From Euglena gracilis (lineage: Eukaryota), in NCBI GenBank assembly GCA_039621445.1, contig CP154954.1, positions 27,516,123 to 27,580,122 on the forward strand: DNA of 64,000 nt, given 5' to 3'. Position numbers and translations under genes: made by a program. The notes under the pieces are model-generated. The model was not told the DNA's origin. It worked only from the letters and a program-made list of their open reading frames with translations, and made no database searches. Below are positions 35,996-64,000 of this stretch, in pieces. Position 1 is the stretch's first letter; every line of letters begins with the position of its first letter.

Positions 35996-38900
35996 TACAT
36001 ATATTGATTTTTTTTTCCTCACTTCCAAAGTGAATGCCTTTTTTTTTTTTTTTTTTCCCTTCCCATCTCAAAATGACGTTGGAAGATGGTTAACCCAAGG
36101 GAATGTGTATGACCATCTTCATTTACGTATGTTTGGGCTTGCCAAATCTTGAAAAGGAAAACATAAGAGGATGTCTTTCTCCATTTTCTATGTCCAGCTT
36201 GCTTATTTTTTATTTTATCTTATATTGGTTTTCTTATTTTATATTTTTTTTTATTTTCTTTCCCCATTCGTGTTTTCTCTGTCCATTCCCTTTCCCCATC
36301 GGAGCATTCACATGTGTTGCAGCCACTGTTCACACGTTTATGTTTCGGCATCTTCACAGTTCTTCCCGACAGCTTGATGGCCCACTTCACGGCATTGTCG
36401 CTGGAGGAGCAAGCCTTGGCGGCTTCCCCAAAGACCGCCTTCCCGATTATGTCAGTGGGGAAAGCACCGGACACCAACGAAGTAGTGGTGTCAGCTCGCA
36501 TCTATTCCTCAAAAAAGGAAGTGCACCGTATTCCAGCTTCATCGGGACCATGCCTCTCCTCAGTAAATGACCTCTGCATTGGCCCTCCCTCTCCATTTCA
36601 CTCAGAAACACACTCTATCTCATATTCATATTCACACTCACACATGCGCGCCTCTCCATCTCTCTCTCTATCTCTTATCTCTTCTTCTGGTTTCCATGTG
36701 TTCTCCCGCTTTTTTTTTTTTTTGCATTTTTTAGTAGGGACTCACTCCACGGTTGGGCACAAAAAAAAAACCCCAAAAAAATCCCTCCGACGTTGTGCAA
36801 TAAGTTTTTTTGGGGGGGTTGTTGTTGTTGTTGTTGTGTTATTTAACAAATGATAAATTATTATTTATTGTAATAATAATAATAATATTATTATTATATA
36901 TAATAACAATAATATTTTATAATATAATTATAATAATATCATTATATTACAATATTTATATACATTTTTTATATAATGTTTTTTTGTTATATATTATTTA
37001 TATATTATTATTATTAGATATATTAGGTTATTATTAATTTTAAATATAATAATAATTACAGGTTTCCGCAGGGGCTGTTTCCCCCCCCTTGATATGTCGA
37101 CAGAAGGGAACCCTGCCCCCTGGTAAGGCAACCATCTACAAGTGGCTCTCACCAGCATGATGACCAACACACCCTGCTAGATGAAAAAGTTATGAGCTGT
37201 GCTCACGAGGTAGACCGGAATGATTTTCTTTTTCCTCCCCGCTGAGAGTTGATGTATGGGCCGATTACTTAGCTCTTCAGTCTTTGGGTGCCCATGATCA
37301 CTGGCGCTTTACCAGCAACCAGCATGGCCACTCTCCGTAAGGGGTTTGCCAGCTCTGGGAGTGGAAGTCTTGGAGCGATGTACTTGCTATACTCCTGATG
37401 CACTACTCCAGCCAACGGTGGGATGAAGAGAAAAAACTGGTTTTTCAGGCTGAGGTTTGCTGATGAGTCTCCCGACGTCGAAAGTGGCCAATACACATGT
37501 TTGCCTGAGTTACCATTGTTCTGTTTTATTCCCTCCCCCCCCTAAGCTTGAATGTATTTCGTACATAGGTTATGTATGTAGTGTGGGATTGTTTTTGTTT
37601 TGTTATCTTGTTTGCTTGTATGTTCCCCGTTTTTTCCCCTTGAGGACAACAAAAGCCATCCCATTTCCAAAAAAAAACCGGAAACCAAACGAGCTTGTCC
37701 AATCGCATTTCTGGTCTCCCACAAATTTCTTTTTCCAATGTTTTGTGTTGTCTCTCAACACAAGGTGAGCTTCATATACAATAATAATTAGTTGTTGTTC
37801 TTTTTCCATCAATGCATATATAAAATTTATTGTTACTAGCAGTATCATTAGGTTTAGTATTATCTTTGTATTCCTCATACTGATTATTTATGATCGTATT
37901 TGCAGTTTTTATTCTACAGTTCTTCAACACCACACAGTTACATATTTTGAGCTCAATCTAGATTGTGTCAATCTAGAGAGTTTTTCTCTGCCTGCATCCT
38001 CCTCTTTCTGGTTTTCTTTTCCTTTTTTCTTTGTTTTTTTTTTTTTTCAACGAATGAAGTTTTCGATGGGTTTAGTCAAACATTTGGCAAAAATACCTGC
38101 TGAATCTGCCCCATGAACAATTTATGAAACTGATTTTGAATGACAGTGGCAAGGAGAAAGAGAAAGACAAAGATCGACCGAAGACCAAACTTTTGATGCT
38201 GATCATATGGTATGCGGTGTACAGTTGGGTATCCAGATCATTGAACAAGCAACCGGTGTATGGGTTGAAGATCTCTGAAGATGAGAGTGTTCCAGATTCT
38301 CCTTTGAGCCCTGAGGATTGGGCCAAGCTCGTCAAGGCTGTGGTTCAGCAAGTCAAGGCTCCGCCAGATTGTCCAGGGGTGCTCTCTCATTTTTTGGTTG
38401 GAAGGGTTCGTTTGATTATTGTTTTAGTTTTTTTTAAAAAAAAGAAAAACCAAATCGATTTTTTTTTTATTGCCTGCGTTGTTTCAGCAAAAACCTGACA
38501 CTAGGGGGGTCCCCCCCTACTTCCCATACCTTCTCCTCTTTTCCCGAGCATTTAATTGGGGACTCAACGACCAGATTGATTCAGGTGGTGGGTGCCTCAG
38601 GTTGTGTTTGCCATAAAATGTTTTTTTCCCCGTGATCAGAGAGAATATGTCTGTTCCTGGGAGAAGGTGATGAAGCCGCAAGATAGATCATCCATTTCTG
38701 CGGTGGCTTCGGGTTCCTCTTGGCGGTCGCTTCTGCTTCCCTCGAGTCCCGCTCTGTCTAGTTCTTGTCTTGTTTTTTGCGTTTTTTTGGTCACACTCTA
38801 ATGTTTGATACAGTTATGTTGTGGTGGTGGGAACCATTAAGTTTATCACGTTTGTCTGCTGAGAGGAAAAGCATACCAAAACACAAGAAGTAATGAAGAT

Positions 38901-41900
38901 GAGAGCCACTTATAGGTGTAAAATAGCAAAGAGCTTGTCTACAGACTTGCCCCTTTGCTAGAGTTGCTAGAGATGGCTAGAGAGTTACTGGAATTTGCAT
39001 GTTTTTGTTTATTCTTTCTACTCTATGAGTGCATTCGGTTTGCCATCGTTTAGTAGGATTATTGTGGGGGTACTGCACTTTTTCTTTTTGGGAGCTTGAC
39101 AGCATTTGGCATTCAAGTTTCATGTGTGTCCACTATGGACACAATTTTAGAGGAGGTCTTGTTTTTACCTGACATCATTGTACCTCAAGCCAGTGCGGCA
39201 TTGAGAGAGCTTCTCATCGAACATCAAGCCGGATCCTCGAACCTGCGCGCTCTTGATGGCATCCGCCTTCCGCAACAACTTCAGATCGCGCTTCGACAAG
39301 TGTGGTCCAAGGTCACCACCAGCCAACGTTTGGCGCTGCTTGGTCCATACAATTTTGTTCTTCTTCTATCGGTTTATTTTCTTTTATTATTTATTTTTGT
39401 TTCCCTTTTTGTTATCTTTTAAAGGACATAATCCCCGTATCATCTCTGTTTCATGAAAGTGTGGTTGTTGCAGAGCCAGTGAATTTATCCCAACATACGG
39501 TTCATCAAATATTGATCAGGTCTCTTTCGGGGGGGGGCACACATATACCCGGACTGCCCATTGTCTTTTTTTTTTAATTATTCATTGTGGAAGTGAGGAT
39601 AGTTAGCACAGTTGTGCAGTGGAATCAATGCAAAGGCTGAATGTTGGAACTCTTATGGTTTCAAGACATACCGATTAAGCATGGGATTCAAAACAAAATG
39701 GCATGTTATGGACCCCTGCAGGAATGGAGCACGGCATGTACGCAACTGGCCCCAGTGGGGGTGTCCTCTCAAGACCAACAGGCCGTGCTCAAGTCCCTCC
39801 AAGGCTATCTGGCACAATTATCTCATTCCACCAATTTCATCAACCTGGTGTACTCCATTTTATTTGCGGCTCCGTCGTTCAGATTTCTTCGGATTCTTCT
39901 GTTAAAAATTTATCACTTGCAAGTTTTATTATATGGCATCCAAAAACAAAACCCAAGAAAGGTATTTTGCGGTTTTGCTTTTGGGAAGGGCAGGATACAA
40001 TAATTGAGTGTGTAAAGTAAAGTAGTCGAGGTGGTGCAGGTTGAGCTTTTAAGAAAATATTTTTCGTTTTTTACCGTTAATAGGCTGTTTGAAAAAGAAA
40101 ATATTTTTCGTGTTTTACCGTTAATAGGCTGTTTGAATCCTTTCCTTTGCCACCTTACAAAGGTTTGTCGGTCCAGAGTGGGTGTAGTTTAGGGTCAAGG
40201 GCAGTGTGATGATCATTTATTTGGTTTTTTTTTGTATATTGGTTTTCTTTTGTTTGTTTCTTTTTTTTTTTCTATTGGGTTGTTGGTTTTGTTTTTTTGT
40301 TCCTGTGGCAACCTGGTTCCCAACATGGGACCTCGGTGGGCTGCACTCTGTTGTTGATCTTCCGACGCTTCGGGCTGCTTTACTGGGCCTGGTCAGAGGG
40401 ATTTCCTCAAAAACCCAATTAAAAGCCTTCCAAAGGCTTGTGGAGGAGCATCTTAGGAAGCAACTTCCCTCTACGTCTGCAGACCACAGCGTTCAGGCTT
40501 TATGTTAGGTCAATTTTAAGTTTCTGTTTGTTTGTTGTGTTTTCCCCCTCCCCCCCCATTTACGTTGTTCTTATTTTCTATTGTTTTCGTTGGAGGATAA
40601 AAGGAATGAATGGGTCATATTCTTATGTGCTCATTCGCAATTTTTTGTGGTTATTGTTGGTTTTTTTTTGTTTCATTTTGATTCTTGTTTTCCCCCTCCT
40701 AATTTATTATAATGGAGCCTGCTGAAGACCTGGATTGGTTTCTGCAAGGTGAGCCCACAACCCCTGTCCCATCTGCCCCATCCTCCTCGACTCTCACGGG
40801 AGCTACAGAGGGTCCTCGTGTTGCTCCCACCGAAGGACAGGAGCGTCCCAAGCCCTCATGGACCGTCAGACCGCTGGAAGAGCAGCAGGGCTCCGTGGTC
40901 CGTGTTTTGAATTTATCTCGTCAGTTCAGTCCCATGGCGTACACAGAAGCTTTGAGGGAGGTTTTGGATTCTATGGATGTGGTCACACCAATGAACGTTG
41001 ATCGTGGTTTTTGTCACGTCACGATTCCATGTTATAAATATCGTGAGTTATTTCGGACTTCGGACATGGCGGAAGTGAAGTTGGCTTCTGGGTTATCTTT
41101 CAGAATCCGTGGGCGCACTCCAGAAGGGGAACCTTACATCGATTTTCGGAGTTCCGCCGCGAAAAGACCCAGGATCGAGGCCGGATCCCGTCCAATTCTC
41201 TCGCCCACTTCGTCAACACCAGTACTAGCACGTGTTGGTGTGCATCCCATCCCGAGTCCCCCTCCGACTCCGCCGTCATTCTCACGTTCCACGGTTGACT
41301 CTTTCGCGAGTTCGCCTTTCGCCAAATTACCAGCCTCTTTGGATGATATCATGCCGGTTTTCACACATTATGCTCCTGATGTTGGTCGTTTCTACAATTG
41401 GTTGTGGATCCCTCCTCTTCCTCCGGCAGCCTACATCCCCCAGGATTTCCTTCGTCTTTTTGGCCCCGCCATAATCAGCACAAATAATCAGGTCAAAGTT
41501 GATTTCCTCAAAGAAATAGTGCAGAGATTGGATTGTGTGGACAACCATGGTTTCTATTTTGAAAAGACATGCGATGCCAAGGGATGTTGGAATTGCGGGT
41601 CTGTTTTTTTCGGCTGATAGTTTGTGTCCGGGCTGTTTGAGTATTTTGTTTTTCTATATTCCGTGCGACACACAAACAACATCCTTAATTGGGTGATGTG
41701 GATGGGTCGGATGCTTTGAAATTCATCCTCAAAGGGCTGCAACAGATCTCAGCCACTTGGTCCACCATGTTGTCGTCGGTGGCGAGCAAATGGGCTAAAG
41801 TTCTCCTTAGCAGGCCTCGCCTTCTGTCGACGGGTGGGGTCTACGTGTCCCCTCCTATCATCAATGATGATGCCTTTTTGGTGTTCTTTTCGATTCCCAA

Positions 41901-44900
41901 GGTTATGCCTCCTCCTCCCAATTTTCCCATCCCTCCCCTGATCAATGAGGAAGTGCGGTGCATATACTCTTCTTTGTGCTCACAATGTGGAAGGCCCAAG
42001 GCAGAAAACATCAAAATTCTGACAAACACACTGCCTTTTTTTGTCAAGAGTGCGTTGTGCATCCGTTTGGATAAGGGACAAACTTCTGCCAACAAAGTTT
42101 TTGCTCAACAGTCTCGTTGGAATCCTTATGGTCTTCCCCTGGAATTTGTGTTACCAGTCACTCCTCGTTTTTTGTTTGACTGCACCCCGGAACAGCCACC
42201 GCACCATGATCTAAGGTTTTGGGTGAAGGAATTGGATGCAAAACTGCCCCCGCTTGTTGATGTCACCAATACTCGAAATCCTGGTTGTTGGAGGATCATG
42301 GATTTGAATTGTGGGGGTGGTTCCTCGCTACCTGCGGTTTGTGATTTGATGTCACTTTTGGATCCAGACTTCATTTTTCTTCAGGAATTGTGGGAGACCG
42401 ACCCTCGGGACGAGATTGCTTTTCGCCGATATGTTATATTCCTCAGTGCATTCCGTGATCGTGGTCAAGGCTTGTGTATTATGGTGCATCGAAGAGTGTT
42501 GTGTCCCAATTCTGCATCGCGATCCTCCCCTATGATTCTCCATGATTGTAGATCTTGGTTAGCTCTGGGGTTTCACGTGGGTTCTTCATCTTTCCTTTTG
42601 ATCAATGTGCATCTTGACCCTTCTTTCAACATGAAACAAAAGGTGGAGGAAATGCATTTGATGGGTACTTTGATTCATAAGTCCAAAGCAGGCTGTCTGG
42701 TGGCGGGTGATTTCAACATACACCGGACAGCACATACGTTGATGGAACACTCCACACGTGCTTTCGGTGTCCCGGGTTTGAGGATACCGTATCCTATGGG
42801 GCTCCACACAAATCACACACGAGCAGGTAATCGGCTTTCCGACACAGAGATTGATTATATATATGCGAGTGATTTTTTCCCCCTCAAGTGGCATGGCCTA
42901 ATTCCGGGTCCGTCTTCCCATGATTGTGTGGTTAACGACCTCATTATACCACATGTTTTTTCTAATTCTCCTTCCTGGAAGAGGTATCAGTTTGCTAATG
43001 TCCCCGCTTCAAAAATTCAACAGGTGGCAATACTTTTGTCATTTTTCTGGTTTTGGTTGCGTGGTCAAGGTGCACATCCCAATTTGTGGCTCCGTGTTTA
43101 CTGGTTTTTGGCTGATAGAGTTTTTGCTCCCTATGATCAACACTCCTCGGCTAAGTCTCTCATACAATTGGGGTTGGCATGTGCCGACCGCCGCTCGAGT
43201 GATCTTCTCATGCAATGGCGGAGCAAATGTGTGGAGCATCGTTTTTTGGCTGGTTTGCAACTCAGCCATGAAGTCGCTTTGCAAATCAGCCCAACCTCCT
43301 TAACAACAAAATTGATCAACACATGTTCCAAAAAGCCGGGGCCGTATCCCAAATTAGCTTCTGGCCGGGGGGAGGATGGGCAAACTGGCAAGACTTCGGA
43401 AGAGGAAATCATCAGTCAATTTAAAATGTATCATGCCAATCGGGGTTTATCCATGAATGTGGGTCATTTGTATGCAGACCTTGATGTGGTATCAAATCTT
43501 CCACAGGATGATCCCTCTTTCTTTCATCTATTTGAGGCCCGCCGTGAAGGGTTATGGAACAATGATCTCATGAGTCGGCGCCTGCATCTTTTTGCTCGGC
43601 CAATGCGACGCTTTGATTCCATCCGAGGCATCACAGAGTCTCTGCGTTGCGGAGGTTCCAATGCCACTTCATTGGATTCGCTCCCCATGGCAGTTCTACA
43701 GCACTTTACCTTGGCAGGCATGGTGGCTTTGAGCCATTATGTGTTTCTTCTACGGGGTCTCCCAAAGGCTCTGAGCAATGAAGTCATTCAATTGGCCATT
43801 CCCAAGGGTGGTCCACAACATTTGTTCACTTCCTATCGGCCCATCAAACTCGGATCCGCCATAAACCGTGTGGAGGCTGGGTCAGTTCATTTAGAGGCAA
43901 GTTTTCGCGCTGAAATGGATGGTTCTTTCACATCCAACCTCTACTCTTATCGGAAGGAAGTGACTCCTTTTATGCTTGCCTTTGCATTAAGGTCCACAAT
44001 TTTGCTGTGTTTGAAGGAAACATCAGAGGCCCACATTTTGGATGGTGATGAATCGGGAGCTTTTGATACTCCTGTTCGGGAGGATTTGGCATTGTTGGAT
44101 CATATGTGGAAAGGCCAATGTGCTTTTGGTAGTTGGGCTCATCGATTTTACGCCACCCAGAGAATTCGCCTTCTAACACATGAGGGTTTGACACAACCGA
44201 TGAAGACAGGGGATGGCCTGTCACAAGGTTGCAAATTTGCCCCGACCGCTTACAACCTAATTGGCGTTGGGAGGAACATAACCTTCATGAAATCATTTCA
44301 AAGTACGTTGTGTCACAACGGCTTACCCCTATGTGAATTTATCTATAGTGACGATCGCCGATGGGTCAGCCCCTGTGCGAATGATTTGGCTATTGCGGCA
44401 CGAGTTGCGAATGCTATCTCACAGGAAGCGTGTGCAATCAATAACTTGCAAAAATTGAAGTATGTTGCTTTGAAACGTGTGCTGATGGTTCCATTTGTAC
44501 TTTTCGATCCGAAGTTGCCATCAATGATCAGTGGGTGCAGTCTGTGTGTGAAGTTCCTTTGATGGTGGGGTTATCAATGCAACCTGGTGCTATAAATCCT
44601 TCCCTACTCCCCAGAATCAAAATTCGCTTACAAAAATTGCGGCAATTCATAAAGAAGTTGAATCCAAATTTCCTGTTGACTTTACGTTGTACAATAGCGT
44701 ATGCGATATCAATACTGGATTATTCCTCCCGGGGCTGTTTTGTTACATCATCAATTTTGATGAAAGTACAACCTTTCCTTAATCAAGTAATACGTGCATG
44801 CCTTTCCTTCCCCCCAGACACCCCCATTTCACTGATGACTCTCCCCATAGCACATTTTGGTTGGGGCTTTCCAAATGTGACTCATCGAGCCCGACTCCAA

Positions 44901-47697
44901 TTTATTTTGGGTTACTTCGAAGCAATCGATGGTAGGAACAATTTGTGTAGATTCGTGATGCGTCAATCTAGGGATGACTCCGGTGTGCAGAGTGACTATG
45001 CTTTGATTCGTTCTTTATTTACCCAATATGATCTCTCCGAGGTTGTTCCAGCCTCATTTTTTTCCCCATGCCTACCCAGCCTTTGCCTTTCACTTCAGCA
45101 TGCCTCCGTACTATATATCACAACGGATGCTTCGCTAGTCTCTCTGCAGGATGGTGTGTTCGATCTTCAACGAGCGGGTTTGGGTGTTGTCATCACGGAT
45201 GGCATTGTTTATCAAGAGATCTCGTGGGGGTTCTGTTCTGTGGCAGCTTGTTCCACTGATCTGGAATGGATGGGGAAGCTTTTGGCAGTTTGGCTGGTGC
45301 GCTTCTTCCGGGGCAAGATAGTACTGTTGTGGTGTGACAACTCATCCGTACAACTTTGCAACTTCACACAATGGGTGAAAGTCTCTCCTTGGGTGGACCG
45401 TTGGGCAAAGATGATTTTGGGTTTGCCGGTTTGGGATCATATCACGGAGGGGTGGCTTCAGGCGGAACACGATTCACTCTCTCAAGGATTGGCATGTTCG
45501 TGGCAGAAACGGGCAGATTATTTGGCTGGTTGGGGCTCAACTCATGTGGAATCGGCTGGTTTCCCTTTGGCTGATATGCTCTCTTCTCTGGAGGACCCCC
45601 CCTTTCCTTTGTTTTGGATGGAAGGCTTGATCGTTTCCTTGAAGAGATTTGTGACCAAGCTCTACGAACTGTGCACTTTCCGTGATTCAGTCGCTTTCGC
45701 CACCCTGAATGCTGGTGCCTTTTGTCGTCTGACTTGGAAAAAGTTGGTTTTATCAAGTGATGTTCCATTGGTCATGCACAAAGTGGCAGCCTACCTGCGT
45801 GCTGTGCCCTTTTTGTCTCGGAGTGCTCATTACAATGTGGAATGTCGGTTTTGTCATGCCGAGGTCGGTTTTTTGCCCAGGCACATTGTTGGATGTGTGG
45901 GATTGTATGAAGTATTGATCAAGGCTTTCTCGGAGGTCCTGCAAACAGTATCAACAGGTTCACTGGGTTCAATACTGGAAAGGTCGGACTTGGCTGCGGT
46001 TCTGCAATCTCAAAATGAGAGGTGGGTCATTGCACTTCTTCCTGAAGAAAACGTCGTCCGTGTGCGTCATTTTTTTGAGCAAAAAGGTTTCCTTTTGCTG
46101 TGTGTTACATGGTCGGGCCTCATCAGTGTACCACATCGATTGAGTATGCTTTTCTCCACAAGTGTTCGTTTGGAATTGTGTGCCATAGTATTACGGACAT
46201 TATCAGCTGCCCCACGAGGATTCTTCACAACATCAGATATCGACATTCCACCGCACACCAATTTTCGGGGTTTGGTGGGTTGGTCAAGCAACGACGCACG
46301 TGGGTGCCAACCGTCTTTCCGGGTCCAACGAAGGCTCGCATGGATCTTGCACAATTTGGAGGGTGGTCGTTTGTGTTCTTCTCGTTCCTTGTCGGTATAC
46401 CTCCCCCCCCGATGTTTGCATCCACCTGACCTATTTGATGTAAGGGTTTTTGCTTGTGATGTTAACCATTGTTTTGTCATCTCTAACCATCCTGGGAGAG
46501 GCCCTGCATGCGTGCTGTGTGATTGCCACATAACAGCTCCCTCGTATTGGCATCTCCATCGCTCCTATTCCGAAGGTGCGCTGTACATCTCAGCAGACTT
46601 CTGCTCATCGCCCCTCTAACCTCCAACACAACGCTTCGATCAGGGTGCTCCACTTCATGTGTTCTTGTGTATGTCTGTAGCTCATGTATCCTCTTCCCCC
46701 CCTATTCATCTACCATCGCTATGTCAAGCACCAAGGGCATGCGCACTTGCTCATTAACCTCTGCCATGGTGTGCTATACACACTGCGATGTACCGTACGG
46801 CGATGTACCCTCTGCAATGCGATTTTATGGATTGCATCGTTTTGGTTGGTGCTGCCCTCTTTCCACCCTGGTTCGACGTGAGTGGTTGTGATGTTTGGGT
46901 TGACTCTTTTCGCTCTCATTTGGTAGGGCTGTGTTTGGGCTCGAGTTGTTTGTGCTGCCCCCTTCCCGCTCTCGTCCGGTAGGGCTGAGCGTGTGCTTGT
47001 TTCGTTCGTGCTGCCCCCTTCCCGCTCTCGTCCGGTAGGGCTGAGCGTGTGCTGGTGTTGTTCGTGCTGCCTCCTTCCCGCTCTCGTCCGGTAGGGCTGA
47101 GCGTGTGCTTGTGTTGTTCGTGCTGCCCCCTTCCCGCTCTCGTCCGGTAGGGCTGAGCGTGTGCTTGTGTTGTTCGTGCTGCCCCCTTCCCGCTCTCGTC
47201 CGGTAGGGCTGAGCGTGTGCTTGTGTTGTTCGTGCTGCCCCCTTCCCGCTCTCGTCCGGTAGGGCTGAGCGTGTGCTGGTGTTGTTCGTGCTGCCTCCTT
47301 CCTGCTCTCGTCCGGTAGGGCCGAGCGTGTGCTTGTGTTGTTCGTGCTGCCCCCTTCCCGCTCTCGTTCGGTAGGGCTGAATTGTTATTTTATTTTATTT
47401 TAATTTAATTTATTTTTCATTTTCCTTCCTTCCCGCAATAAATGCTAAATAAGCCCCTTTCGCGTTGCCTGTACTCGCCCAGGCTCACCAAACCAAACCA
47501 AAAAAAAAACCCTTGCCCTTGCCCTTGCCCTCCCCCTTGCTTTCCCCCTGTCTCTCCTTCCCCTTCTGGGGCTCCGGCTTCCGGTACCCGGGGGTGATCT
47601 CCTCGATGGTGTCCTCCTCCTCTTCCTCTTCTCCCTGCTGCACTGGTGGGACTGCGGGAGCTTCGCTGGCGACTGCAGAGGAGGTGTCCGAGCTGTC

Positions 47698-47729
<32 letters not shown>

Positions 47730-50700
47730 CCTCCTCCACCTCCTCCTCCTCCGGGTGACGGCTGGGCTGGGCCACCGGTGGCGGCACGATGACGGGGCTG
47801 GCCCCCTCGGGCTGACTGGCGGGTGGGGTCAGCTCTGGGGTCTCCCGGCCGGGGGCGGTCATCTCCACGTCACCTTCCTCTGGGCTGTCCACCGCCTCGG
47901 TCTCCTCCCGTCGGGCCTTGCGGGCTGGGGGCCTGCTGGGCTTCTTCTCCGGCTCCTTCTTCTGGCGCTTCTTCTTCCGGTCACCCCCACCCTTCTGGCG
48001 CTCCTCCAGCTTCTGCAGGCGGCGCTGCTCCTGCCGAATCTTGGTCTGGCGGCGCCGCTCCTCGGCCTCCTTGGCCCGTCGCCCCGCCTCCTCAGCGGCC
48101 AGGCGGAGCTTGTCCTGGAGGGCGGCGTTCTCCAGGGGGACCCAGAGGGCGTCCCCCCCTTCCAGGGCGACCAGCAGGAGGGGCAGCATGGTGGAGGCGA
48201 CGGGCCGGGGCAGGGTCACCGTGTTGGCCACGGTCTGGGTGACGTCTTCCAGGCTACTGGCCGAGTCCTCCACCACCACCAGCACCTCGGGGGCCCGCTG
48301 CCGCCGCCACTGCCGGTTCCACATCGGCTCCTCCGGCAGGATGCCGCTGGGCCGCAGCAGTCGGCTGGCCGCCCGGTGCCTCGCCAGCGGCGCCTCGTGC
48401 TCCTCCGCCACCACCCGCTGCGCCGCGCGCGGGCAGGCGTGCTGCCGCAGCGCCCGGTACACCGCCCAGGCGTCCTTGAGCAGCAGCTCGATCCGCGGCC
48501 GCCGCGGCTCCCAGGCCAGCTCCTCCAGCAGCGCCGCGCCGCCCTCCGTCCGCAGCGGCACCCGGGTGTGGGCCACCTGTACCACCAGGGTCTGCAGCGG
48601 GTGGCCGCGCTGCACCACCACCGCCACGAACTCCTCGTAGGTGGCGGCGAAGTGGGCCTTCACCAGCTGGCCCAGCAGCTTCCCGGACTCCGCGGCCAGG
48701 GCGGTCTCCTCGCTTTAGCCCTCGTAGCCACGGCGACGGGAGTGGGTGCTGCTGGCCTGGGAGGACTCCATTCAGTCCACCCCAGGTCTGGCGACACACC
48801 TTACACCAACCCACTATTCCGTCAACGTCACACCGGCCACTCTCACCATTCAGAATGCATCGCACAAACACACATTTACACACTTCACATCCACACCTCT
48901 GTAAGTCATTTCTTCTCTTCAGAGACGTTTTGATGCGCGCAATTGTGCAAGTCAACAAGGAAACAGACACGCACCAATTCACAGCTATACCCTGCCTGGT
49001 CATCCGCCATGTACGTTAGCTCCAGACAGGGAACAGCAATCAAGTATCACCATAAGGCCTTAACCACCCTGCACTTCACGCACACACTCTCAAATTGGTT
49101 GTCAGCATGACATCTCAGAAGTTACAACATCTCCAGCATTCATACAAATCAGACCCCCTTTCGCTCCACTAAGTAACCGATAACGTCCAAAGTGTTTCAT
49201 TGGTCACACAACACCCACTGGGTAGCTTCGCAACAAAAAGCAACAAATTGTGCGCGCAATTGCGCAAGTAAAACAGGAACACTTTTCATCACTGACACAA
49301 ATCTGGAGTGTCACAACCCCCCTCTCAGCAACTCAATCCATAATTGAGGACACAATCGTTTGATGCGCGCAATTGCGCAAGTGTGCAATGCGCCATAAGT
49401 AAAATTCTGTTGAACACCAATTAGAAGGTTCCAATTCACCGGGCATTTCTTCACCCTTGTTCAAGACAGGCGGTGTCACACCCCTCTTCGGGCACACTCA
49501 ATTCCATCGTACTTCGCAATTGGTGGCACCCAACACACCCGCGCAACAATTCTCAAATGCATTGAGGGTGTCCAGTTTCATCGCCAGCCAAACCATGGAT
49601 ATCCACAGGACACATTTGCACCGTCCAAAACTCAAAAACTGTGCGCCGCCAGATCTGGCCAGGTGCTTGCCGCGGGCAGCTGTGGGGTAGAAGTGGGTGT
49701 GGGTGGGTGCCCCGCGGGCAGCGTGAAAGAAAGCAGCTGCGGAGAGGGGGAGGTACAGAATTTCACGCGTCCGTCCGGTCGCGAAGTCCAGTTAGGACTT
49801 TGTATTTGAAGGGGTTCGAATTGCCCAGCCCTAACGAGTTCCGGGCGCGATCACAAAAATTTTTTCCGGCGGACAGGGTACAGGGTCCCAGGGGTTACAA
49901 AAAAATGGTACATTTGCGCAATTGCGCAAATGTCAAAGGAAAAACCCTTAAGTGCGAATTCGGCCGCCTAAGTCCCTCCAAACGAAACCAGCACGCACAG
50001 ACGATGAGCACCTGTGCTCGCCGTCTGTGCGCTCATCGGCTGTGCGCGCCTGTTAGATTTTTTTTGTTCATCAACACATCTCATTTACATGTGCCGTGAT
50101 TCAGATGGTTGGGACCTCCTGCCATCCCAGCCAGGCTGTATTTTAGTCGGGTGTCGACCCCACCCCCGGGGGGGGGGTGCCTGCCTGACCAGGCACTCCA
50201 AGGCACTCCAAATCCGAACCCCCGGGGGGGGGGGTCGGACACACGGTCAAAAGTGCCCTAGCACAGACCCGCCGCCGAAGTCGCCAGGGAGCCAAAAATG
50301 GCCTATTTTCAAAGGAATGTGCCTGGGTGCTGGCCGAAATCCGACCCCCTCGCAGGGGGGGGGGTAGTGCCTGCCTGGGCAGGCACTCATAGGCACGCTG
50401 GACCCCCCCCTCCCCCCAGGGTTGGAAAAATACGGCCTGATCCCGGCAGGCAGGTGGGACCCCCAACAGGCTGAATTTTGAGGTCCCCCAGGGGGGGTAG
50501 GCATTCCAAAGCACCCAGATCTGCACCTGGGAGGGGGGGGTTGGGCTTATGGCCAGAAGTGACTGGGCACACAGTCAAGGCAATTCCAGAAGAGTCCATT
50601 TCTGGCACTTTTTTGGGCCACAACCAGGCAGGCCCCGACCCCACCCCAGGGGGAGAGGTGCAGAAGGGTGTCTGCCTGTCCCGGCACTCCCGGGCACGCG

Positions 50701-54987: not shown

Positions 54988-57900
54988 TCTGTTGGTTGCA
55001 CGAAATGAGCAGATTTAGATGGGTGCATTCGACCATTCCGGGGGACATTTACCAGGTCAGCCCAGGTTACCATGTAAAAATGGACCAAATTGGGCCTTAC
55101 TCCGAGTAACCGAATGGGTGTTCCAGGAGGCCTCCAAAGTCAGGGGACCCGTTGGTTTCATGATTGTCGTGGTTTAATGGTAAGAAAAACATGCAGCGAG
55201 CGGGATGGTTGCAAGAAATGAGCAGATTTAGATGGGTGCATTCGACCATTCCGGGGGACATTTACCAGGTCAGCCCAGGTTACCATGTAAAAATGGACCA
55301 AATTGGGCCTTACTCCGAGTAACCGAATGGGTGTTCCAGGAGGCCTCCAAAGTCAGGGGACCCGTTGGTTTCATGATTGTCGTGGTTTAATGGTAAGAAA
55401 AACATGCAGCCGGAAGGTTGGTTGCAAGAAATGAGCTGATTTTAGATGGGTGCATTCGACCATTCCGGGGGACATTTACCAGGTCAGCCCAGGTTACCAT
55501 GTAAAAATGGACCAAATTGGGCCTTACTCCGAGTAACCGAATGGGTGTTCCAGGAGGCCTCCAAAGTCAGGGGACCCGTTGGTTTCATGATTGTCGTGGT
55601 TTAATGGTAAGAAAAACATGCAGCCGGAAGGTTGGTTGCAAGAAATGAGCAGATTTAGATGGGTGCATTCGACCATTCCGGGGGACATTTACCAGGTCAG
55701 CCCAGGTTACCATGTAAAAATGGACCAAATTGGGCCTTACTCCGAGTAACCGAATGGGTGTTCCAGGAGGCCTCCAAAGTCAGGGGACCCGTTGGTTTCA
55801 TGATTGTCGTGGTTTAATGGTAAGAAAAACATGCAGCGGGAAGGTTGGTTGCAAGAAATGAGCAGATTTAGATGGGTGCATTCGACCATTCCGGGGGACA
55901 TTTACCAGGTCAGCCCAGGTTACCATGTAAAAATGGACCAAATTGGGCCTTACTCCGAGTAACCGAATGGGTGTTCCAGGAGGCCTCCAAAGTCAGGGGA
56001 CCCGTTGGTTTCATGATTGTCGTGGTTTAATGGTAAGAAAAACATGCAGCGGGAATGTTGGTTGCAAGAAATGAGCAGATTTAGATGGGTGCATTCGACC
56101 ATTCCGGGGGACATTTACCAGGTCAGCCCAGGTTACCATGTAAAAATGGACCAAATTGGGCCTTACTCCGAGTAACCGAATGGGTGTTCCAGGAGGCCTC
56201 CAAAGTCAGGGGACCCGTTGGTTTCATGATTGTCGTGGTTTAATGGTAAAAATAAATAGGCAGCAGGGAAGGTTGGTTGCAAGAAATGAGCAGATTTAGA
56301 TGGGTGCATTCGACCATTCCGGGGGACATTTACCAGGTCAGCCCAGGTTACCATGTAAAAATGGACCAAATTGGGCCTTACTCCGAGTAACCGAATGGGT
56401 GTTCCAGGAGGCCTCCAAAGTCAGGGGACCCGTTGGTTTCATGATTGTCGTGGTTTAATGGTAAAATAAAATAGGCAGCAGGGAAGGTTGGTTGCAAGAA
56501 ATGAGCAGATTTAGATGGGTGCATTCGACCATTCCGGGGCACATTTACCAGGTCAGCCCAGGTTACCATGTAAAAATGGACCAAATTGGGCCTTACTCCG
56601 AGTAACCGAATGGGTGTTCCAGGAGGCCTCCAAAGTCAGGGGACCCGTTGGTTTCATGATTGTCGTGGTTTAATGGTAAGAAAAACATGCAGCGGGGCAT
56701 GTTGGTTGCAAGAAATGAGCACATTTAGATGGGTGCATTCGACCATTCCGGGGGACATTTACCAGGTCAGCCCAGGTTACCATGTAAAAATGGACCAAAT
56801 TGGGCCTTACTCCGAGTAACCGAATGGGTGTTCCAGGAGGCCTCCAAAGTCAGGGGACCCGTTGGTTTCATGATTGTCGTGGTTTAATGGTAAGAAAAAC
56901 ATGCAGCCGGAAGGTTGGTTGCAAGAAATGAGCAGATTTAGATGGGTGCATTCGACCATTCCGGGGGACATTTACCAGGTCAGCCCAGGTTACCATGTAA
57001 AAATGGACCAAATTGGGCCTTACTCCGAGTAACCGAATGGGTGTTCCAGGAGGCCTCCAAAGTCAGGGGACCCGTTGGTTTCATGATTGTCGTGGTTTAA
57101 TGGTAAGAAAAACATGCATCCGGAAGGTTGGTTGCAAGAAATGAGCAGATTTAGATGGGTGCATTCGACCATTCCGGGGGACATTTACCAGGTCAGCCCA
57201 GGTTACCATGTAAAAATGGACCAAATTGGGCCTTACTCCGAGTAACCGAATGGGTGTTCCAGGAGGCCTCCAAAGTCAGGGGACCCGTTGGTTTCATGAT
57301 TGTCGTGGTTTAATGGTAAGAAAAACATGCAGCGGGAATGGTTGGTTGCAAGAAATGAGCAGATTTAGATGGGTGCATTCGACCATTCCGGGGGACATTT
57401 ACCAGGTCAGCCCAGGTTACCATGTAAAAATGGACCAAATTGGGCCTTACTCCGAGTAACCGAATGGGTGTTCCAGGAGGCCTCCAAAGTCAGGGGACCC
57501 GTTGGTTTCATGATTGTCGTGGTTTAATGGTAAGAAAAACATGCAGCCGGAAGGTTGGTTGCAAGAAATGAGCAGATTTAGATGGGTGCATTCGACCATT
57601 CCGGGGGACATTTACCAGGTCAGCCCAGGTTACCATGTAAAAATGGACCAAATTGGGCCTTACTCCGAGTAACCGAATGGGTGTTCCAGGAGGCCTCCAA
57701 AGTCAGGGGACCCGTTGGTTTCATGATTGTCGTGGTTTAATGGTAAGAAAAACATGCAGCAGGAATGTTGGTTGCAAGAAATGAGCAGATTTAGATGGGT
57801 GCATTCGACCATTCCGGGGGACATTTACCAGGTCAGCCCAGGTTACCATGTAAAAATGGACCAAATTGGGCCTTACTCCGAGTAACCGAATGGGTGTTCC

Positions 57901-60900
57901 AGGAGGCCTCCAAAGTCAGGGGACCCGTTGGTTTCATGATTGTCGTGGTTTAATGGTAGAAAAAACATGCAGCCGGAAGGTTGGTTGCAAGAAATGAGCA
58001 GATTTAGATGGGTGCATTCGACCATTCCGGGGGACATTTACCAGGTCAGCCCAGGTTACCATGTAAAAATGGACCAAATTGGGCCTTACTCCGAGTAACC
58101 GAATGGGTGTTCCAGGAGGCCTCCAAAGTCAGGGGACCCGTTGGTTTCATGATTGTCGTGGTTTAATGGTAAGAAAAACATGCAGCCGGAAGGTTGGTTG
58201 CAAGAAATGAGCAGATTTAGATGGGTGCATTCGACCATTCCGGGGGACATTTACCAGGTCAGCCCAGGTTACCATGTAAAAATGGACCAAATTGGGCCTT
58301 ACTCCGAGTAACCGAATGGGTGTTCCAGGAGGCCTCCAAAGTCAGGGGACCCGTTGGTTTCATGATTGTCGTGGTTTAATGGTAAGAAAAACATGCAGCC
58401 GGAAGGTTGGTTGCAAGAAATGAGCAGATTTAGATGGGTGCATTCGACCATTCCGGGGGACATTTACCAGGTCAGCCCAGGTTACCATGTAAAAATGGAC
58501 CAAATTGGGCCTTACTCCGAGTAACCGAATGGGTGTTCCAGGAGGCCTCCAAAGTCAGGGGACCCGTTGGTTTCATGATTGTCGTGGTTTAATGGTAAGA
58601 AAAACATGCATCCGGAAGGTTGGTTGCAAGAAATGAGCAGATTTAGATGGGTGCATTCGACCATTCCGGGGGACATTTACCAGGTCAGCCCAGGTTACCA
58701 TGTAAAAATGGACCAAATTGGGCCTTACTCCGAGTAACCGAATGGGTGTTCCAGGAGGCCTCCAAAGTCAGGGGACCCGTTGGTTTCATGATTGTCGTGG
58801 TTTAATGGTAAGAAAAACATGCAGTGAATGTTGGTTGCAAGAAATGAGCAGATTTAGATGGGTGCATTCGACCATTCCGGGGGACATTTACCAGGTCAGC
58901 CCAGGTTACCATGTAAAAATGGACCAAATTGGGCCTTACTCCGAGTAACCGAATGGGTGTTCCAGGAGGCCTCCAAAGTCAGGGGACCCGTTGGTTTCAT
59001 GATTGTCGTGGTTTAATGGTAAGAAAAACATGCAGCGGGAAGGTTGGTTGCAAGAAATGAGCAGATTTAGATGGGTGCATTCGACCATTCCGGGGGACAT
59101 TTACCAGGTCAGCCCAGGTTACCATGTAAAAATGGACCAAATTGGGCCTTACTCCGAGTACCGAATGGGTGTTCCAGGAGGCCTCCAAAGTCAGGGGACC
59201 CGTTGGTTTCATGATTGTCGTGGTTTAATGGTAAGAAAAACATGCAGCCGGAAGGTTGGTTGCAAGAAATGAGCACATTTAGATGGGTGCATTCGACCAT
59301 TCCGGGGGACATTTACCAGGTCAGCCCAGGTTACCATGTAAAAATGGACCAAATTGGGCCTTACTCCGAGTAACCGAATGGGTGTTCCAGGAGGCCTCCA
59401 AAGTCAGGGGACCCGTTGGTTTCATGATTGTCGTGGTTTAATGGTAAGAAAAACATGCAGCGTGAAGGTTGGTTGCAAGAAATGAGCAGATTTAGATGGG
59501 TGCATTCGACCATTCCGGGGGACATTTACCAGGTCAGCCCAGGTTACCATGTAAAAATGGACCAAATTGGGCCTTACTCCGAGTTACCGAATGGGTGTTC
59601 CAGGAGGCCTCCAAAGTCAGGGGACCCGTTGGTTTCATGATTGTCGTGGTTTAATGGTAAGAAAAACATGCATCCGGAAGGTTGGTTGCAAGAAATGAGC
59701 AGATTTAGATGGGTGCATTCGACCATTCCGGGGGACATTTACCAGGTCAGCCCAGGTTACCATGTAAAAATGGACCAAATTGGGCCTTACTCCGAGTAAC
59801 CGAATGGGTGTTCCAGGAGGCCTCCAAAGTCAGGGGACCCGTTGGTTTCATGATTGTCGTGGTTTAATGGTAAGAAAAACATGCAGCGGGAAGGTTGGTT
59901 GCAAGAAATGAGCACATTTAGATGGGTGCATTCGACCATTCCGGGGGACATTTACCAGGTCAGCCCAGGTTACCATGTAAAAATGGACCAAATTGGGCCT
60001 TACTCCGAGTAACCGAATGGGTGTTCCAGGAGGCCTCCAAAGTCAGGGGACCCGTTGGTTTCATGATTGTCGTGGTTTAATGGTAAGAAAAACATGCAGC
60101 CGGAATGTTGGTTGCAAGAAATGAGCAGATTTAGATGGGTGCATTCGACCATTCCGGGGGACATTTACCAGGTCAGCCCAGGTTACCATGTAAAAATGGA
60201 CCAAATTGGGCCTTACTCCGAGTAACCGAATGGGTGTTCCAGGAGGCCTCCAAAGTCAGGGGACCCGTTGGTTTCATGATTGTCGTGGTTTAATGGTAAG
60301 AAAAACATGCAGCGGGAATGTTGGTTGCAAGAAATGAGCACATTTAGATGGGTGCATTCGACCATTCCGGGGGACATTTACCAGGTCAGCCCAGGTTACC
60401 ATGTAAAAATGGACCAAATTGGGCCTTACTCCGAGTTACCGAATGGGTGTTCCAGGAGGCCTCCAAAGTCAGGGGACCCGTTGGTTTCATGATTGTCGTG
60501 GTTTAATGGTAAGAAAAACATGCAGCGGGAATGTTGGTTGCAAGAAATGAGCAGATTTAGATGGGTGCATTCGACCATTCCGGGGGACATTTACCAGGTC
60601 AGCCCAGGTTACCATGTAAAAATGGACCAAATTGGGCCTTACTCCGAGTTACCGAATGGGTGTTCCAGGAGGCCTCCAAAGTCAGGGGACCCGTTGGTTT
60701 CATGATTGTCGTGGTTTAATGGTAAGAAAAACATGCATCCGGAAGGTTGGTTGCAAGAAATGAGCACATTTAGATGGGTGCATTCGACCATTCCGGGGGA
60801 CATTTACCAGGTCCGCCTACTCCGAGAAACCGATTGGTGTTCCAGGAGGCCTCCAAAGTCAGGGGACCCGTTGGTTTCATGATTGTCGTGGTTTAATGGT

Positions 60901-63900
60901 AAGAAAAACATGCGTGAATGTTGGTTGCAAGAAATGAGCAGATTTAGATGGGTGCATTCGACCATTCCGGGGGACATTTACCAGGTCAGCCCAGGTTACC
61001 ATGTAAAAATGGACCAAATTGGGCCTTACTCCGAGTTACCGAATGGGTGTTCCAGGAGGCCTCCAAAGTCAGGGGACCCGTTGGTTTCATGATTGTCGTG
61101 GTTTAATGGTAAGAAAAACATGCAGCGGGAAGGTTGGTTGCAAGAAATGAGCAGATTTAGATGGGTGCATTCGACCATTCCGGGGGACATTTACCAGGTC
61201 AGCCCAGGTTACCATGTAAAAATGGACCAAATTGGGCCTTACTCCGAGTAACCGAATGGGTGTTCCAGGAGGCCTCCAAAGTCAGGGGACCCGTTGGTTT
61301 CATGATTGTCGTGGTTTAATGGTAAGAAAAACATGCAGCCGGAAGGTTGGTTGCAAGAAATGAGCAGATTTAGATGGGTGCATTCGACCATTCCGGGGGA
61401 CATTTACCAGGTCAGCCCAGGTTACCATGTAAAAATGGACCAAATTGGGCCTTACTCCGAGTTACCGAATGGGTGTTCCAGGAGGCCTCCAAAGTCAGGG
61501 GACCGTTGGTTTCATGATTGTCGTGGTTTAATGGTAAGAAAAAAATGCAGCGGGAAGGTTGGTTGCAAGAAATGAGCAGATTTAGATGGGTGCATTCGAC
61601 CATTCCGGGGGACATTTACCAGGTCAGCCCAGGTTACCATGTAAAAATGGACCAAATTGGGCCTTACTCCGAGTTACCTAATGGGTGTTCCAGGAGGCCT
61701 CCAAAGTCAGGGGACCCGTTGGTTTCATGATTGTCGTGGATTAATGGTAAGAAAAACAGACAGCTGGGCCTGCCTTAGCTTGGCCGTGGGCATCGCTTAT
61801 AGGACCGACCTCTCGGACACCCAGCCCATCAGGAGCAGCCAGAACGTTGGTTGCAAGAAATGAGCAGATTTAGATGGGTGCATTCGACCATTCCGGGGGA
61901 CATTTACCAGGTCAGCCCAGGTTACCATGTAAAAATGGACCAAATTGGGCCTTACTCCGAGTTACCGAATGGGTGTTCCAGGAGGCCTCCAAAGTCAGGG
62001 GACCCGTTGGTTTCATGATTGTCGTGGTTTAATGGTAAGAAAAACATGCAGCCGGAAGGTTGGTTGCAAAAAATGAGCACATTTAGATGGGTGCATTCGA
62101 CCATTCCGGGGGACATTTACCAGGTCAGCCCAGGTTACCATGTAAAAATGGACCAAATTGGGCCTTACTCCGAGTTAAGGAATGGGTGTTCCAGGAGGCC
62201 TCCAAAGTCAGGGGACCCGTTGGTTTCATGATTGTCGTGGTTTAATGGTAAGAAAACATGCAGCGGGAATGTTGGTTGCAAGAAATGAGCACATTTAGAT
62301 GGGTGCATTCGACCATTCCGGGGGACATTTACCAGGTCAGCCCAGGTTACCATGTAAAAATGGACCAAATTGGGCCTTACTCCGAGTAACCGAATGGGTG
62401 TTCCAGGAGGCCTCCAAAGTCAGGGGACCCGTTGGTTTCATGATTGTCGTGGTTTAATGGTAAGAAAAACATGCAGCGGGAATGTTGGTTGCAAGAAATG
62501 AGCACATTTCGATGGGTGCATTCGACCATTCCGGGGGACATTTACCAGGTCAGCCCAGGTTACCACGTAAAAATGGACCAAATTGGGCCTTACTCCGAGT
62601 AACCGAATGGGTGTTCCAGGAGGCCTCCAAAGTCAGGGGACCCGTTGGTTTCATGATTGTCGTGGTTTAATGGTAAGAAAGACATGCAGCCGGAAGGTTG
62701 GTTGCAAGAAATGAGCAGATTTAGATGGGTGCATTCGACCATTCCGGGGGACATTTACCAGGTCAGCCCAGGTTACCATGTAAAAATGGACCAAATTGGG
62801 CCTTACTCCGAGTTACCTAATGGGTGTTCCAGGAGGCCTCCAAAGTCAGGGGACCCGTTGGTTTCATGATTGTCGTGGTTTAATGGTAAGAAAAACATGC
62901 AGCGGGAATGTTGGTTGCAAGAAATGAGCACATTTCGATGGGTGCATTCGACCATTCCGGGGGACATTTACCAGGTCAGCCCAGGTTACCACGTAAAAAT
63001 GGACCAAATTGGGCCTTACTCCGAGTAACCGAATGGGTGTTCCAGGAGGCCTCCAAAGTCAGGGGACCCGTTGGTTTCATGATTGTCGTGGTTTAATGGT
63101 AAGAAAGACATGCAGCCGGAAGGTTGGTTGCAAGAAATGAGCAGATTTAGATGGGTGCATTCGACCATTCCGGGGGACATTTACCAGGTCAGCCCAGGTT
63201 ACCATGTAAAAATGGACCAAATTGGGCCTTACTCCGAGTTACCTAATGGGTGTTCCAGGAGGCCTCCAAAGTCAGGGGACCCATTGGTTTCATGATTGTT
63301 GTGGTTTAATGGTAAGAAAAACATGCAGCGGGAATGTCGGTTGCAAGAAATGAGCAGATTTAGATGGGTGCATTCGACCATTCCGGGTGACATTTACCAG
63401 GTCAGCCCAGGTTACCATGTAAAAATGGACCAAATTGGGCCTTACTCCGAGTAACCGAATGGGTGTTCCAGGAGGCCTCCAAAGTCAGGGGACCCGTTGG
63501 TTTCATGATCGTCGTGGTTTAATGGTAAGAAAAACATGCAGCCGGAAGGTTGGTTGCAAGAAATGAGCAGATTTAGATGGGTGCATTCGACCATTCCGGG
63601 GGACATTTACCAGGTCAGCCCAGGTTACCATGTAAAAATGGACCAAATTGGGCCTTACTCCGAGTTACCGAATGGGTGTTCCAGGAGGCCTCCAAAGTCA
63701 GGGGACCCGTTGGTTTCATGATCGTCGTGGATTAATGGTAAGAAAAACATGCAGCCGGAAGGTTGGTTGCAAGAAATGAGCAGATTTAGATGGGTGCATG
63801 CGACCATTCCGGGGGACATTTACCAGGTCATCCCAGGTTACCATGTAAAAATGGACCAAATTGGGCCTTACTCCGAGTAACCGAATGGGTGTTCCAGGAG

Positions 63901-64000
63901 GCCTCCAAAGTCAGGGGACCCGTTGGTTTCATGATCGTCGTGGTTTAATTGTAAGAGAAACATGCAGCCGGAAGGTTGGTTGCAAGAAATGAGCAGATTT
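54988..64000. repeat. 213-bp tandem satellite, ~42 highly similar copies, running off the window end
   Basis: CCGAATGGGTG at 55110, 55323, and onward at ~213-bp spacing; one copy has a ~37-bp deletion (~60813), one a 76-bp insert (61759). Confidence 0.97.

Follow-up and report, generated by a model that had tools for sequence, protein, structure and literature searches.

Long interspersed nuclear elements (LINEs) copy themselves through RNA and are normally free of introns, so an efficiently spliced intron should vanish from the daughters of any copy that carries one. Penelope-like elements are described as exceptional for their spliceosomal introns, and they resemble the locus reported here in being retroelements with introns in their genomic copies (PMC4209133); human LINE-1 RNA is also spliced, as the spliced integrated retrotransposed elements known as SpIREs attest (PMC5860796). 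Euglenids possess a further class, the nonconventional introns, for which a code of 5'-N3CDG-/-CH'GN5-6|R has been derived from knock-in mutagenesis and synthetic introns (PMC12501133), with a consensus in E. gracilis of CAGG at +4 to +7 and CCTG at -9 to -6 (PMC11170887) and further rules set out in PMC4770533, PMC11282704 and PMC3935182. These introns are thought to derive from elements resembling MITEs (transposable elements of miniature size with inverted repeats), with new gains within single species (PMC4770533, PMC11282704, PMC12501133), and the LINE content of E. gracilis is given as 1.49% (PMC11252322). Our literature search found no paper on introns in euglenid LINEs; the supplements of the intron catalogues (PMC12501133, PMC11170887), which lay outside that search, might list such introns. 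Here we analyse a 64,000-nucleotide stretch of Euglena gracilis DNA (assembly GCA_039621445.1, contig CP154954.1, positions 27,516,123 to 27,580,122 of the forward strand; hereafter the window, with positions counted from its first letter), in which a non-LTR retrotransposon occupies 39.1-47.4 kb on the + strand, its first open reading frame (ORF1) being followed by an ORF2 in two frames. We consider it probable, from the DNA sequence, that this is a near-intact LINE of the apurinic/apyrimidinic endonuclease (APE) type, lying in a euglenid-type genome, in which the N-terminal coding part of ORF1 is split by nonconventional introns.

Euglenid nonconventional introns are known from tubA/tubB, hsp90 and gapC and, genome-wide, from Euglena agilis and E. 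gracilis, and the second and third of three spacers in the 5' part of the element resemble them in many particulars. Both spacers have CAG at +4 to +6 and CTG at -8 to -6, a 3-nt spacer before the 5' motif and a 5-nt spacer after the 3' motif, a purine opening the next exon, pairing that extends past the core motif, borders other than GT-AG and a purine as the first intron base. As predicted introns, they differ in lying within the ORF1 of a retrotransposon rather than in a host gene. The surrounding DNA fits such a setting: CAG...CTG helices of at least 12 bp number 20 pairs on the + strand of the window against about 7 in dinucleotide shuffles, and this excess, together with an E. gracilis transcript among the relatives of ORF1, indicates a genome of the euglenid kind. 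Inverted repeats of the form CAG(G)...(C)CTG, 13-18 bp long, perfect or nearly so and 100-1300 nt apart, lie mostly in GC-rich sequence (window positions 1059/1484, 2611/3215, 2903/3002, 1433/2739 and 54187/54687) and are candidate host-gene nonconventional introns or MITE-like elements; the strongest are perfect CAGG...CCTG repeats, of up to 18 bp. Spacers 2 and 3 of the retrotransposon are T-rich, with a GC content of 0.35, whereas the strongest candidate repeats elsewhere in the window mostly enclose sequence of GC 0.53-0.72.

The original prediction, made from the letters of this stretch, held that the ORF1 of a LINE is split by nonconventional introns, that coding-like islands alternate with T-rich spacers whose ends pair, and that placing all three spacers by a +4/-8 rule gives one open frame of about 516 aa. 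Composition and stop codons confirm the alternation: the spacers at 39343-39715, 39988-40310 and 40491-40726 are T-rich and low in GC (T 0.38-0.49, GC 0.35-0.38) with stops in all three frames, and the islands have a GC content of 0.45-0.55. All six end motifs stand at the positions given for them, namely GGTCCATA at 39342 with TATGGACC at 39707, CAGGATACAA at 39991 with TTGTTCCTG at 40297, and CAGGCTTTAT at 40494 with ATGGAGCCTG at 40712, and the terminal-pairing energies of the spacers run from -7.1 to -10.7 kcal/mol, where the 5% quantile of the null is -7.0. The long frame was reproduced as well, since joining 39135-39342, 39716-39987, 40311-40490 and 40727-41617 gives 1551 nt encoding 516 aa with no internal stop. 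The placement rule holds for the spacers at 39988-40310 and 40491-40726, both with a CAG/CTG core, and breaks down for that at 39343-39715, where the core is CAT/ATG; likewise, the splitting of ORF1 by nonconventional introns stands for intron 3, at the junction TSADHS|DLDWFLQ, and is not borne out for intron 1 as placed.

Intron 3 (40491-40726, + strand, 236 nt) is certainly an intron-like interruption and a well-supported candidate for a euglenid-type nonconventional intron in a LINE ORF1. Its borders, GTT-CAGGCTTTAT...ATGGAGCCTG-CTGAA|G, satisfy N3-CAG...CTG-N5|purine, with exon 4 opening on the G at 40727, and its ends form a helix of 10 contiguous base pairs, two of them G-U. At the boundary of exon 3 and ORF1, 5000 dinucleotide shuffles yielded a compliant, in-frame pair with a helix at least this long in a fraction of 0.0004. 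Homology, too, extends across the join. Exon 3 (40311-40490, +, 60 codons), as supported by tblastn, Smith-Waterman and phmmer comparisons, would encode an N-terminal helical unit of the ORF1 protein (ORF1p) reading TWFPTW...SKTQLKAF...STSADHS, and its counterpart occurs in two relatives: P0004, a 244-aa transcript-derived protein of Euglena gracilis (EG_transcript_2000 in EukProt) that is the closest named relative of ORF1, and P0007, a 2007-aa single ORF on a 6887-nt ENA contig that comprises ORF1, endonuclease, reverse transcriptase (RT) and a C-terminal part. In a tblastn search P0004 splits into two collinear pieces with the spacer between them: its residues 25-83 match 40329-40517 at E 0.002, and for residues 76-244 the match is to 40715-41170, at E 4e-14. 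The exon 3 peptide scores 63 against the P0004 N-terminus by Smith-Waterman, a value reached by 0 of 2000 shuffles, and aligns with the P0007 N-terminus at p 0.035; among the 1539 stop-to-stop ORF peptides of the window, the exon 3 ORF is the best match for the P0004 N-terminus (E 0.0013, the next at E 0.5). Splicing in silico raises the scores, to 69 against P0007 (53 and 29 for the separate pieces) and to 86 against P0004 (65 and 40), and both relatives align straight through the predicted join ...ADHS|DLDWFLQ, which bears out the predicted junction and the homology of the island at 40311-40490 with the segment that precedes DWFL. In both relatives a helical unit ending ...SK-x-QL... is followed, as here, by the DWFL motif, a Pro-rich linker and a core resembling an RNA recognition motif (RRM), whereas their coding sequence is unbroken where intron 3 sits in the window element.

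Without splicing, this region reads as a 301-aa ORF that starts at ATG 40712 and stops at 41615-17, with the first frame of ORF2 beginning 72 nt later. That ATG sits in the 3' arm of intron 3 (ATGGAGCCTG, 40712-40721) and would be lost if the intron were spliced. There is no AG within 40603-40715, so that a conventional or trans-splice acceptor past the pyrimidine tract would fall at 40716-17 and would likewise remove ATG 40712. A conventional intron running from GT at 40491 to AG at 40716-17 is also in frame and gives similar alignment scores with the relatives; against it weigh its 5' end, GTTCA, which is far from the conventional donor GTGTG of E. gracilis, and the terminal pairing energy of the GT-AG ends, which is zero.

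A second nonconventional intron ending at 40310 is probable from its acceptor. Spacer 2, which the prediction placed at 39988-40310 (+), has the ends GGG-CAGG...CCTG-TGGCA|A, which fit both N3-CAG...CTG-N5|R and the CAGG/CCTG of E. gracilis, and the next exon opens with an A at 40311, downstream of a T-tract and just before a 'TWF' whose counterpart in the alignment is the 'DWF' close to the P0004 N-terminus. Here the acceptor stood up and the donor proved ambiguous. The donor 39987|GGG-CAGG has a purine as its first base, and its ends pair in both the minimum free energy (MFE) and the centroid structures of RNAfold; its contiguous helix is of only 5 bp, which is common, and position 39988 ranks 421st of 1100 donor positions by duplex energy. 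With the alternative donor 39715|CTG-CAGGAATGGAG the helix has 11 bp, a length equalled or surpassed in a fraction of 0.0135 of 2000 shuffles (frame ignored), and position 39716 ranks 15th of the 1100; this donor starts with a pyrimidine and would render the GC-rich middle island intronic. Other donors compete too, compliant pairs for this spacer numbering 15 against a shuffle mean of 14.7. Inside the spacer, at 40053-40140, a direct repeat of about 45 nt, aaaatatttttcg...ggctgtttgaa, is seen twice by eye.

Further upstream a third intron is possibly present. The ends of spacer 1 as placed (39343-39715, +) form a perfect inverted repeat of 8 bp. Its terminal fold comes to -7.7 kcal/mol, or to -10.4 with 39342 as the first intron base, which puts it among roughly the best 1-5% of 3000 position pairs drawn at random; the spacer fails the published code on both the CAG/CTG core and the purine rule. 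Code-compliant alternatives run from 39317 to 39645, where the donor is the best duplex partner of its acceptor, and from 39333 to 39727. The candidate exon 1 (39135-39342, +), which begins at ATG 39135 and might end at 39316, 39332, 39341 or 39342, is the sole open frame in its part of the element and has a GC content of 0.52. It is weakly similar to the P0004 N-terminus (score 39, with an uncorrected shuffle p of 0.0085), and by phmmer it ranks fourth of the 1539 window ORF peptides, at a non-significant E of 1.5. In the middle coding-like island (39646-39987, +), where 39716-39847 has a GC content of 0.55 and 39850-39987 is AT-rich, the best-looking reading is the +2 frame, from about 39646 or 39716 to 39847, which has the highest codon score. 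Its stretch QEWSTACTQLA / YKWFLHCTQLAN resembles the N-terminus of another ORF1 relative, P0006 (shuffle p 0.003 raw, about 0.06 after 21 tests), whereas the frame that the prediction had assigned to the middle exon shows no similarity to the relatives and a codon score below that of the +2 frame. The +2 frame could be brought into line with the 39988 donor by small GT-AG introns that exist on paper, none of them convincing, and a permissive enumeration of donors and acceptors for this exon returned hundreds of solutions and was uninformative. A MAFFT alignment suggests a loose pattern, 'WF ... D-I/L-P ... SS-K/Q-x-Q-L', common to exon 1, the island in its +2 frame, exon 3 and the unit of P0004. 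Pfam searches of the upstream islands gave nothing above cut-offs.

Several results weigh against an ORF1 split by nonconventional introns, or against parts of that reading. The RNAfold MFE structure of the isolated region omits the terminal helix of intron 3, and shuffled sequence, with no regard to position or frame, gives helices of 10-11 pairs at about 0.7 per kb on each strand. At intron 1 as placed, the exon that follows the CAT/ATG core opens with a C (39716), and the similarities of exons 1 and 2 to the relatives are not significant after correction. As many as 48 code-compliant models with at most three introns reach ORF1 in frame, and the four exon models that we named (516, 484, 469 and 440 aa) are all open; given so many compliant open models, an open frame alone proves little, and the data underdetermine exons 1 and 2. 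Islands and T-rich spacers are not told apart by the codon-usage scan; trained as log-odds on ORF1 and ORF2, it was dropped as a discriminator since the T-rich spacers score like known coding sequence. No second copy was found in the window by self-BLAST, and scans of metagenome, viral and prokaryote-genome contigs returned no relative. The frame break in ORF2 and the ORF1/ORF2 offsets relative to P0007, described below, may mean that this copy is dead, or may be assembly indels. A DNA alignment of the three exon-plus-intron units showed similarity in the T-tracts only, and the low shuffle p-values obtained for it were an artefact of mononucleotide shuffling.

The ORF1 main body, exon 4 (40727-41617, +), was examined with HMMER and AlphaFold2 and runs from DLDWFLQ through an RRM-like core and a Pro-rich linker to a C-terminal Cys motif. 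An exhaustive HMMER search with ORF1 returned six proteins, of which P0002, P0004, P0005, P0006 and P0007 are real relatives and P0003, a repetitive sequence, was discarded as a spurious match. P0002 shows 55% identity, P0004 and P0007 show 27-34% (P0007 about 28-34%), and P0006 has a cluster-mate, P0008. Word-based protein searches found no relative with ORF1, P0006 as the sole match with an ORF1 profile, and P0001 as the sole match with ORF2. ORF1 had no Pfam match and no PDB sequence match (profile A2), and the ESM Atlas, queried with P0004, gave nothing usable. AlphaFold2, run on a seven-sequence alignment, modelled residues 61-146 as a beta-alpha-beta fold with pLDDT 94-98, the rest being of low confidence (mean 59.9), and in a Foldseek search of the PDB nearly all the listed top matches of this core were RRM domains, weak ones with a best E of 0.058 and target TM scores of 0.57-0.67. 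The model thus suggests an RRM-like core. L1-type LINE ORF1 proteins have an N-terminal helical region ahead of an RRM, and ORF1 here resembles them in its modelled beta-alpha-beta core, with RRMs as best, though weak, PDB matches, and in a region before that core that is probably helical; it differs in matching neither Pfam nor PDB by sequence and in Foldseek E values of 0.058 or more.

ORF2 lies in two overlapping frames. The first, of 957 aa (41689-44562, +; ORF2a), carries the APE endonuclease and a putative RT, on the evidence of Pfam and of collinearity with P0007, and the second, of 724 aa (44445-46619, +; ORF2b), carries the C-terminal part of that putative RT, a stretch that by eye looks RNase H-like, and a C-terminus rich in Cys. 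The endonuclease is recognised by Pfam PF03372 (Exo_endo_phos) over residues 207-408 (E 8e-10, 39.3 bits, cut-off 24.5), and P0007 too has an APE domain by Pfam. The RVT_1 match is weak (E 0.02, 15 bits, under the Pfam cut-off of 29.6), and the RT motifs YRPIKL, DGDESGAFD and YSDD are visible by eye. A PDB sequence search with ORF2a gave no match, and a profile of P0001 and ORF2b matched PDB 8gh6_A ('Reverse transcriptase-like protein', E 3.4e-4) through profile stretch 29-185, which comes from the RT part of P0001. P0001, a single ORF of 905 aa, spans both frames, with residues 1-186 aligned to the first and residues 191-903 to the second, and P0007 is collinear over residues 533-1380 on the first frame and 1402-1993 on the second. 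On this sequence evidence the element is an APE-type non-LTR retrotransposon (APE-RT LINE), and the predicted non-LTR identity is borne out by the Pfam domain and by the collinearity with P0001 and P0007. Penelope-like elements combine a telomerase-like RT with a GIY-YIG endonuclease on its C-terminal side; Pfam showed no GIY-YIG domain in either ORF2a or ORF2b, and the locus differs from them in the Exo_endo_phos domain N-terminal to the RT and in predicted introns of nonconventional rather than spliceosomal type. Self-BLAST of 38500-47000 against the window revealed no long terminal repeats, its only product being an array of a 56-bp unit in 8.4 tandem copies which, with an AT-rich, TTATT-like tail, occupies 46911-47425 (+; Tandem Repeats Finder and sequence). 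Array and tail begin 290 nt past the ORF2 stop and are possibly where the LINE ends on its 3' side. A search of the flanks for a target-site duplication found none, the longest exact word in common being 10 nt.

The state of the copy bears on its age. ORF2 switches frame at about 44473-44484, at a site that is not a homopolymer and where P0001 and P0007 are uninterrupted, and its 957 + 724 = 1681 codons are free of stops; with so many stop-free codons and one frame break, the copy is young. The ORF1 stop comes after a T7 run (41604-41610), and the +1 frame carries the Cys motif onward: its 'SADSLCPGCLS' after the stop resembles 'SAQCLVCPACGKS' of P0007 (window 41596-41700). A second frame offset relative to the single ORF of P0007 lies near 41689-41693. 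These breaks may be real, disabling mutations or assembly indels. P0007 differs from the window element, with its ORF1 stop and frame change, in that a single ORF of 2007 aa takes in both ORF1 and ORF2; the two-ORF layout here may therefore be secondary.

If ORF1 is split in this way, nonconventional-intron machinery would pair CAG at +4 to +6 with CTG at -8 to -6 in the transcript and excise the spacer, joining ...STSADHS to DLDWFLQ, and the mature mRNA would encode a long ORF1p with at least one helical 'WF...SKxQL' unit at its N-terminus, a core for RNA binding that resembles an RRM, and a Cys motif at the C-terminus. We infer that this splicing takes place in vivo, with indirect support from the way transcript-derived P0004 aligns through the join, and that exons 1 and 2 would belong to the same ORF as exons 3-4. 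ATG 40712 would be usable solely on unspliced RNA; from its place in the 3' arm of intron 3 it follows that unspliced RNA could yet give a short ORF1p, which would be one possible way of reconciling the template and messenger roles of the RNA. In human LINE-1, splicing deletes needed sequence and leaves defective copies, whereas here it would assemble the full ORF1. All three spacers are crowded into ~0.6 kb at the start of the coding sequence, and the remaining ~5.9 kb of ORF1 and ORF2, collinear with P0007, has no spacer. With ORF2 nearly undecayed, three recent insertions confined to the first 1.6 kb are unlikely, and inheritance of the introns from the source element is somewhat favoured; inheritance would in turn imply that the element was copied either from unspliced RNA or as DNA, or else that its source locus is long-lived. 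A euglenid LINE family with heritable nonconventional introns in ORF1, in which target-primed reverse transcription takes unspliced RNA as its template and spliced RNA yields the full ORF1p with its N-terminal helical units, is a tentative proposal that we hold to be possible and would not yet bet on.

The extent of the split ORF1 invites an alternative in which only exon 3 and intron 3 belong to it, 39135-39342 and 39646-39987 being 5' untranslated region (UTR), remnants of other elements or host exons, and the start codon coming from elsewhere, such as ATG 40209 through the T-tract or a short upstream exon. A one-intron model from ATG 40209 is indeed open, the corrected similarities of exons 1 and 2 fall short of significance, and the relatives are silent upstream, P0004 starting 7 residues before the first DWF and P0007 inside the unit; further islands lie upstream (38076-38400), and the low-GC block begins at about 36.0 kb. 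We nonetheless regard this alternative as doubtful, given that the 40311 acceptor fits the code exactly, that the T-tract just upstream would encode poly-Phe/Leu, that the ATG of exon 1 is preceded by a pyrimidine tract and AGs, and that the islands share the loose 'WF...D-I/L-P...SS-K/Q-x-Q' pattern with exon 3 and P0004. Chance would explain away more, making all the upstream sequence ordinary non-coding 5' UTR and ORF1 the 301-aa ORF from ATG 40712. The many alternative open models, the frequency of helices of such length when position is ignored and the uninformative codon scan all agree with it, but it leaves unexplained the homology of exon 3 to the N-termini of the relatives (0 of 2000 shuffles, top of 1539 ORFs) and the rarity of the intron-3 configuration (0.0004 of 5000 shuffles); we consider it very improbable, and it is disfavoured.

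Two other accounts accept the spacers as insertions or introns and deny that the family carries them through RNA. The source element may have had an unbroken ORF1, with MITE-like or nonconventional-intron-like sequences entering this copy after integration, in which case the spacers might even be spliced, yet would not be a property of the family, and no mechanism based on an unspliced template would be needed. The continuity of P0007 and P0004 across the junction, the presence of at least one disabling frame break in this copy, and the derivation from MITE-like elements and within-species gain attributed to nonconventional introns (PMC4770533, PMC11282704, PMC12501133) all suit such insertions. 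They sit poorly with three spacers in ~0.6 kb and none in ~5.9 kb, with 1681 stop-free ORF2 codons that leave little time for them, with spacers that have no other copy in the window and no mutual similarity beyond T-tracts, and with the lack of a clear target-site duplication at the junctions as judged by eye, and we think them unlikely. The locus might instead be a long-lived, host-gene-like source whose spliced mRNA is reverse-transcribed into intron-less daughters, so that its introns are never copied from RNA. LINE proteins act preferentially on their own mRNA, and this cis-preference would suit a source gene, as would the existence of the intron-less P0007 on its 6887-nt contig and the want of a second intron-bearing copy in the window. 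P0007, at only ~28-34% identity, belongs to another family, however, and is not a daughter, and the ORF2 frame break would be odd in a maintained source gene; we judge such a source improbable. Inherited introns in a split ORF1 would have wider consequences. If they are real, no LINE before this one would have been shown to retain its introns through retrotransposition, and no earlier retroelement would be known to rely on the euglenid nonconventional-splicing machinery. A LINE that needs splicing to complete its first gene poses the puzzle of how template RNA and messenger RNA stay apart. Nonconventional introns are themselves suspected descendants of mobile elements, and their presence in another mobile element would mean that they are not confined to host genes; LINE copies, moreover, offer many dated, parallel cases in which intron gain, loss and evolution can be measured.

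The element lies in a low-GC block (36000-47000, GC 0.36-0.50) between flanks of 0.55-0.68. The block, whose start lies about 3 kb upstream of ATG 39135, contains more coding-like islands upstream (e.g. 38076-38400), which have no Pfam match. Part of 38900-42400 is present in 20 of the 24 sequencing runs listed, a count that carries no inference on copy number, expression or habitat; the share of sampled words from this interval was 0.49-0.57 in DNA-type runs, 0.18-0.29 in runs guessed to be RNA and 0.12 in a leaf-litter metatranscriptome. Pfam searches of 10 long ORFs elsewhere in the window gave nothing above cut-offs, and Rfam gave 0 matches across the window. Beyond the AT-rich tail, a 409-aa ORF on the minus strand (47485-48714), GC-rich, with an acidic, Ser-rich N-terminal part and no Pfam match, is probably a host exon adjoining the element. 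Farther on, a 213-bp satellite of 42 copies with 91% match fills 54991-64000, to the end of the window, with a constant GC content of 0.48-0.50 and a GC skew of about +0.19.

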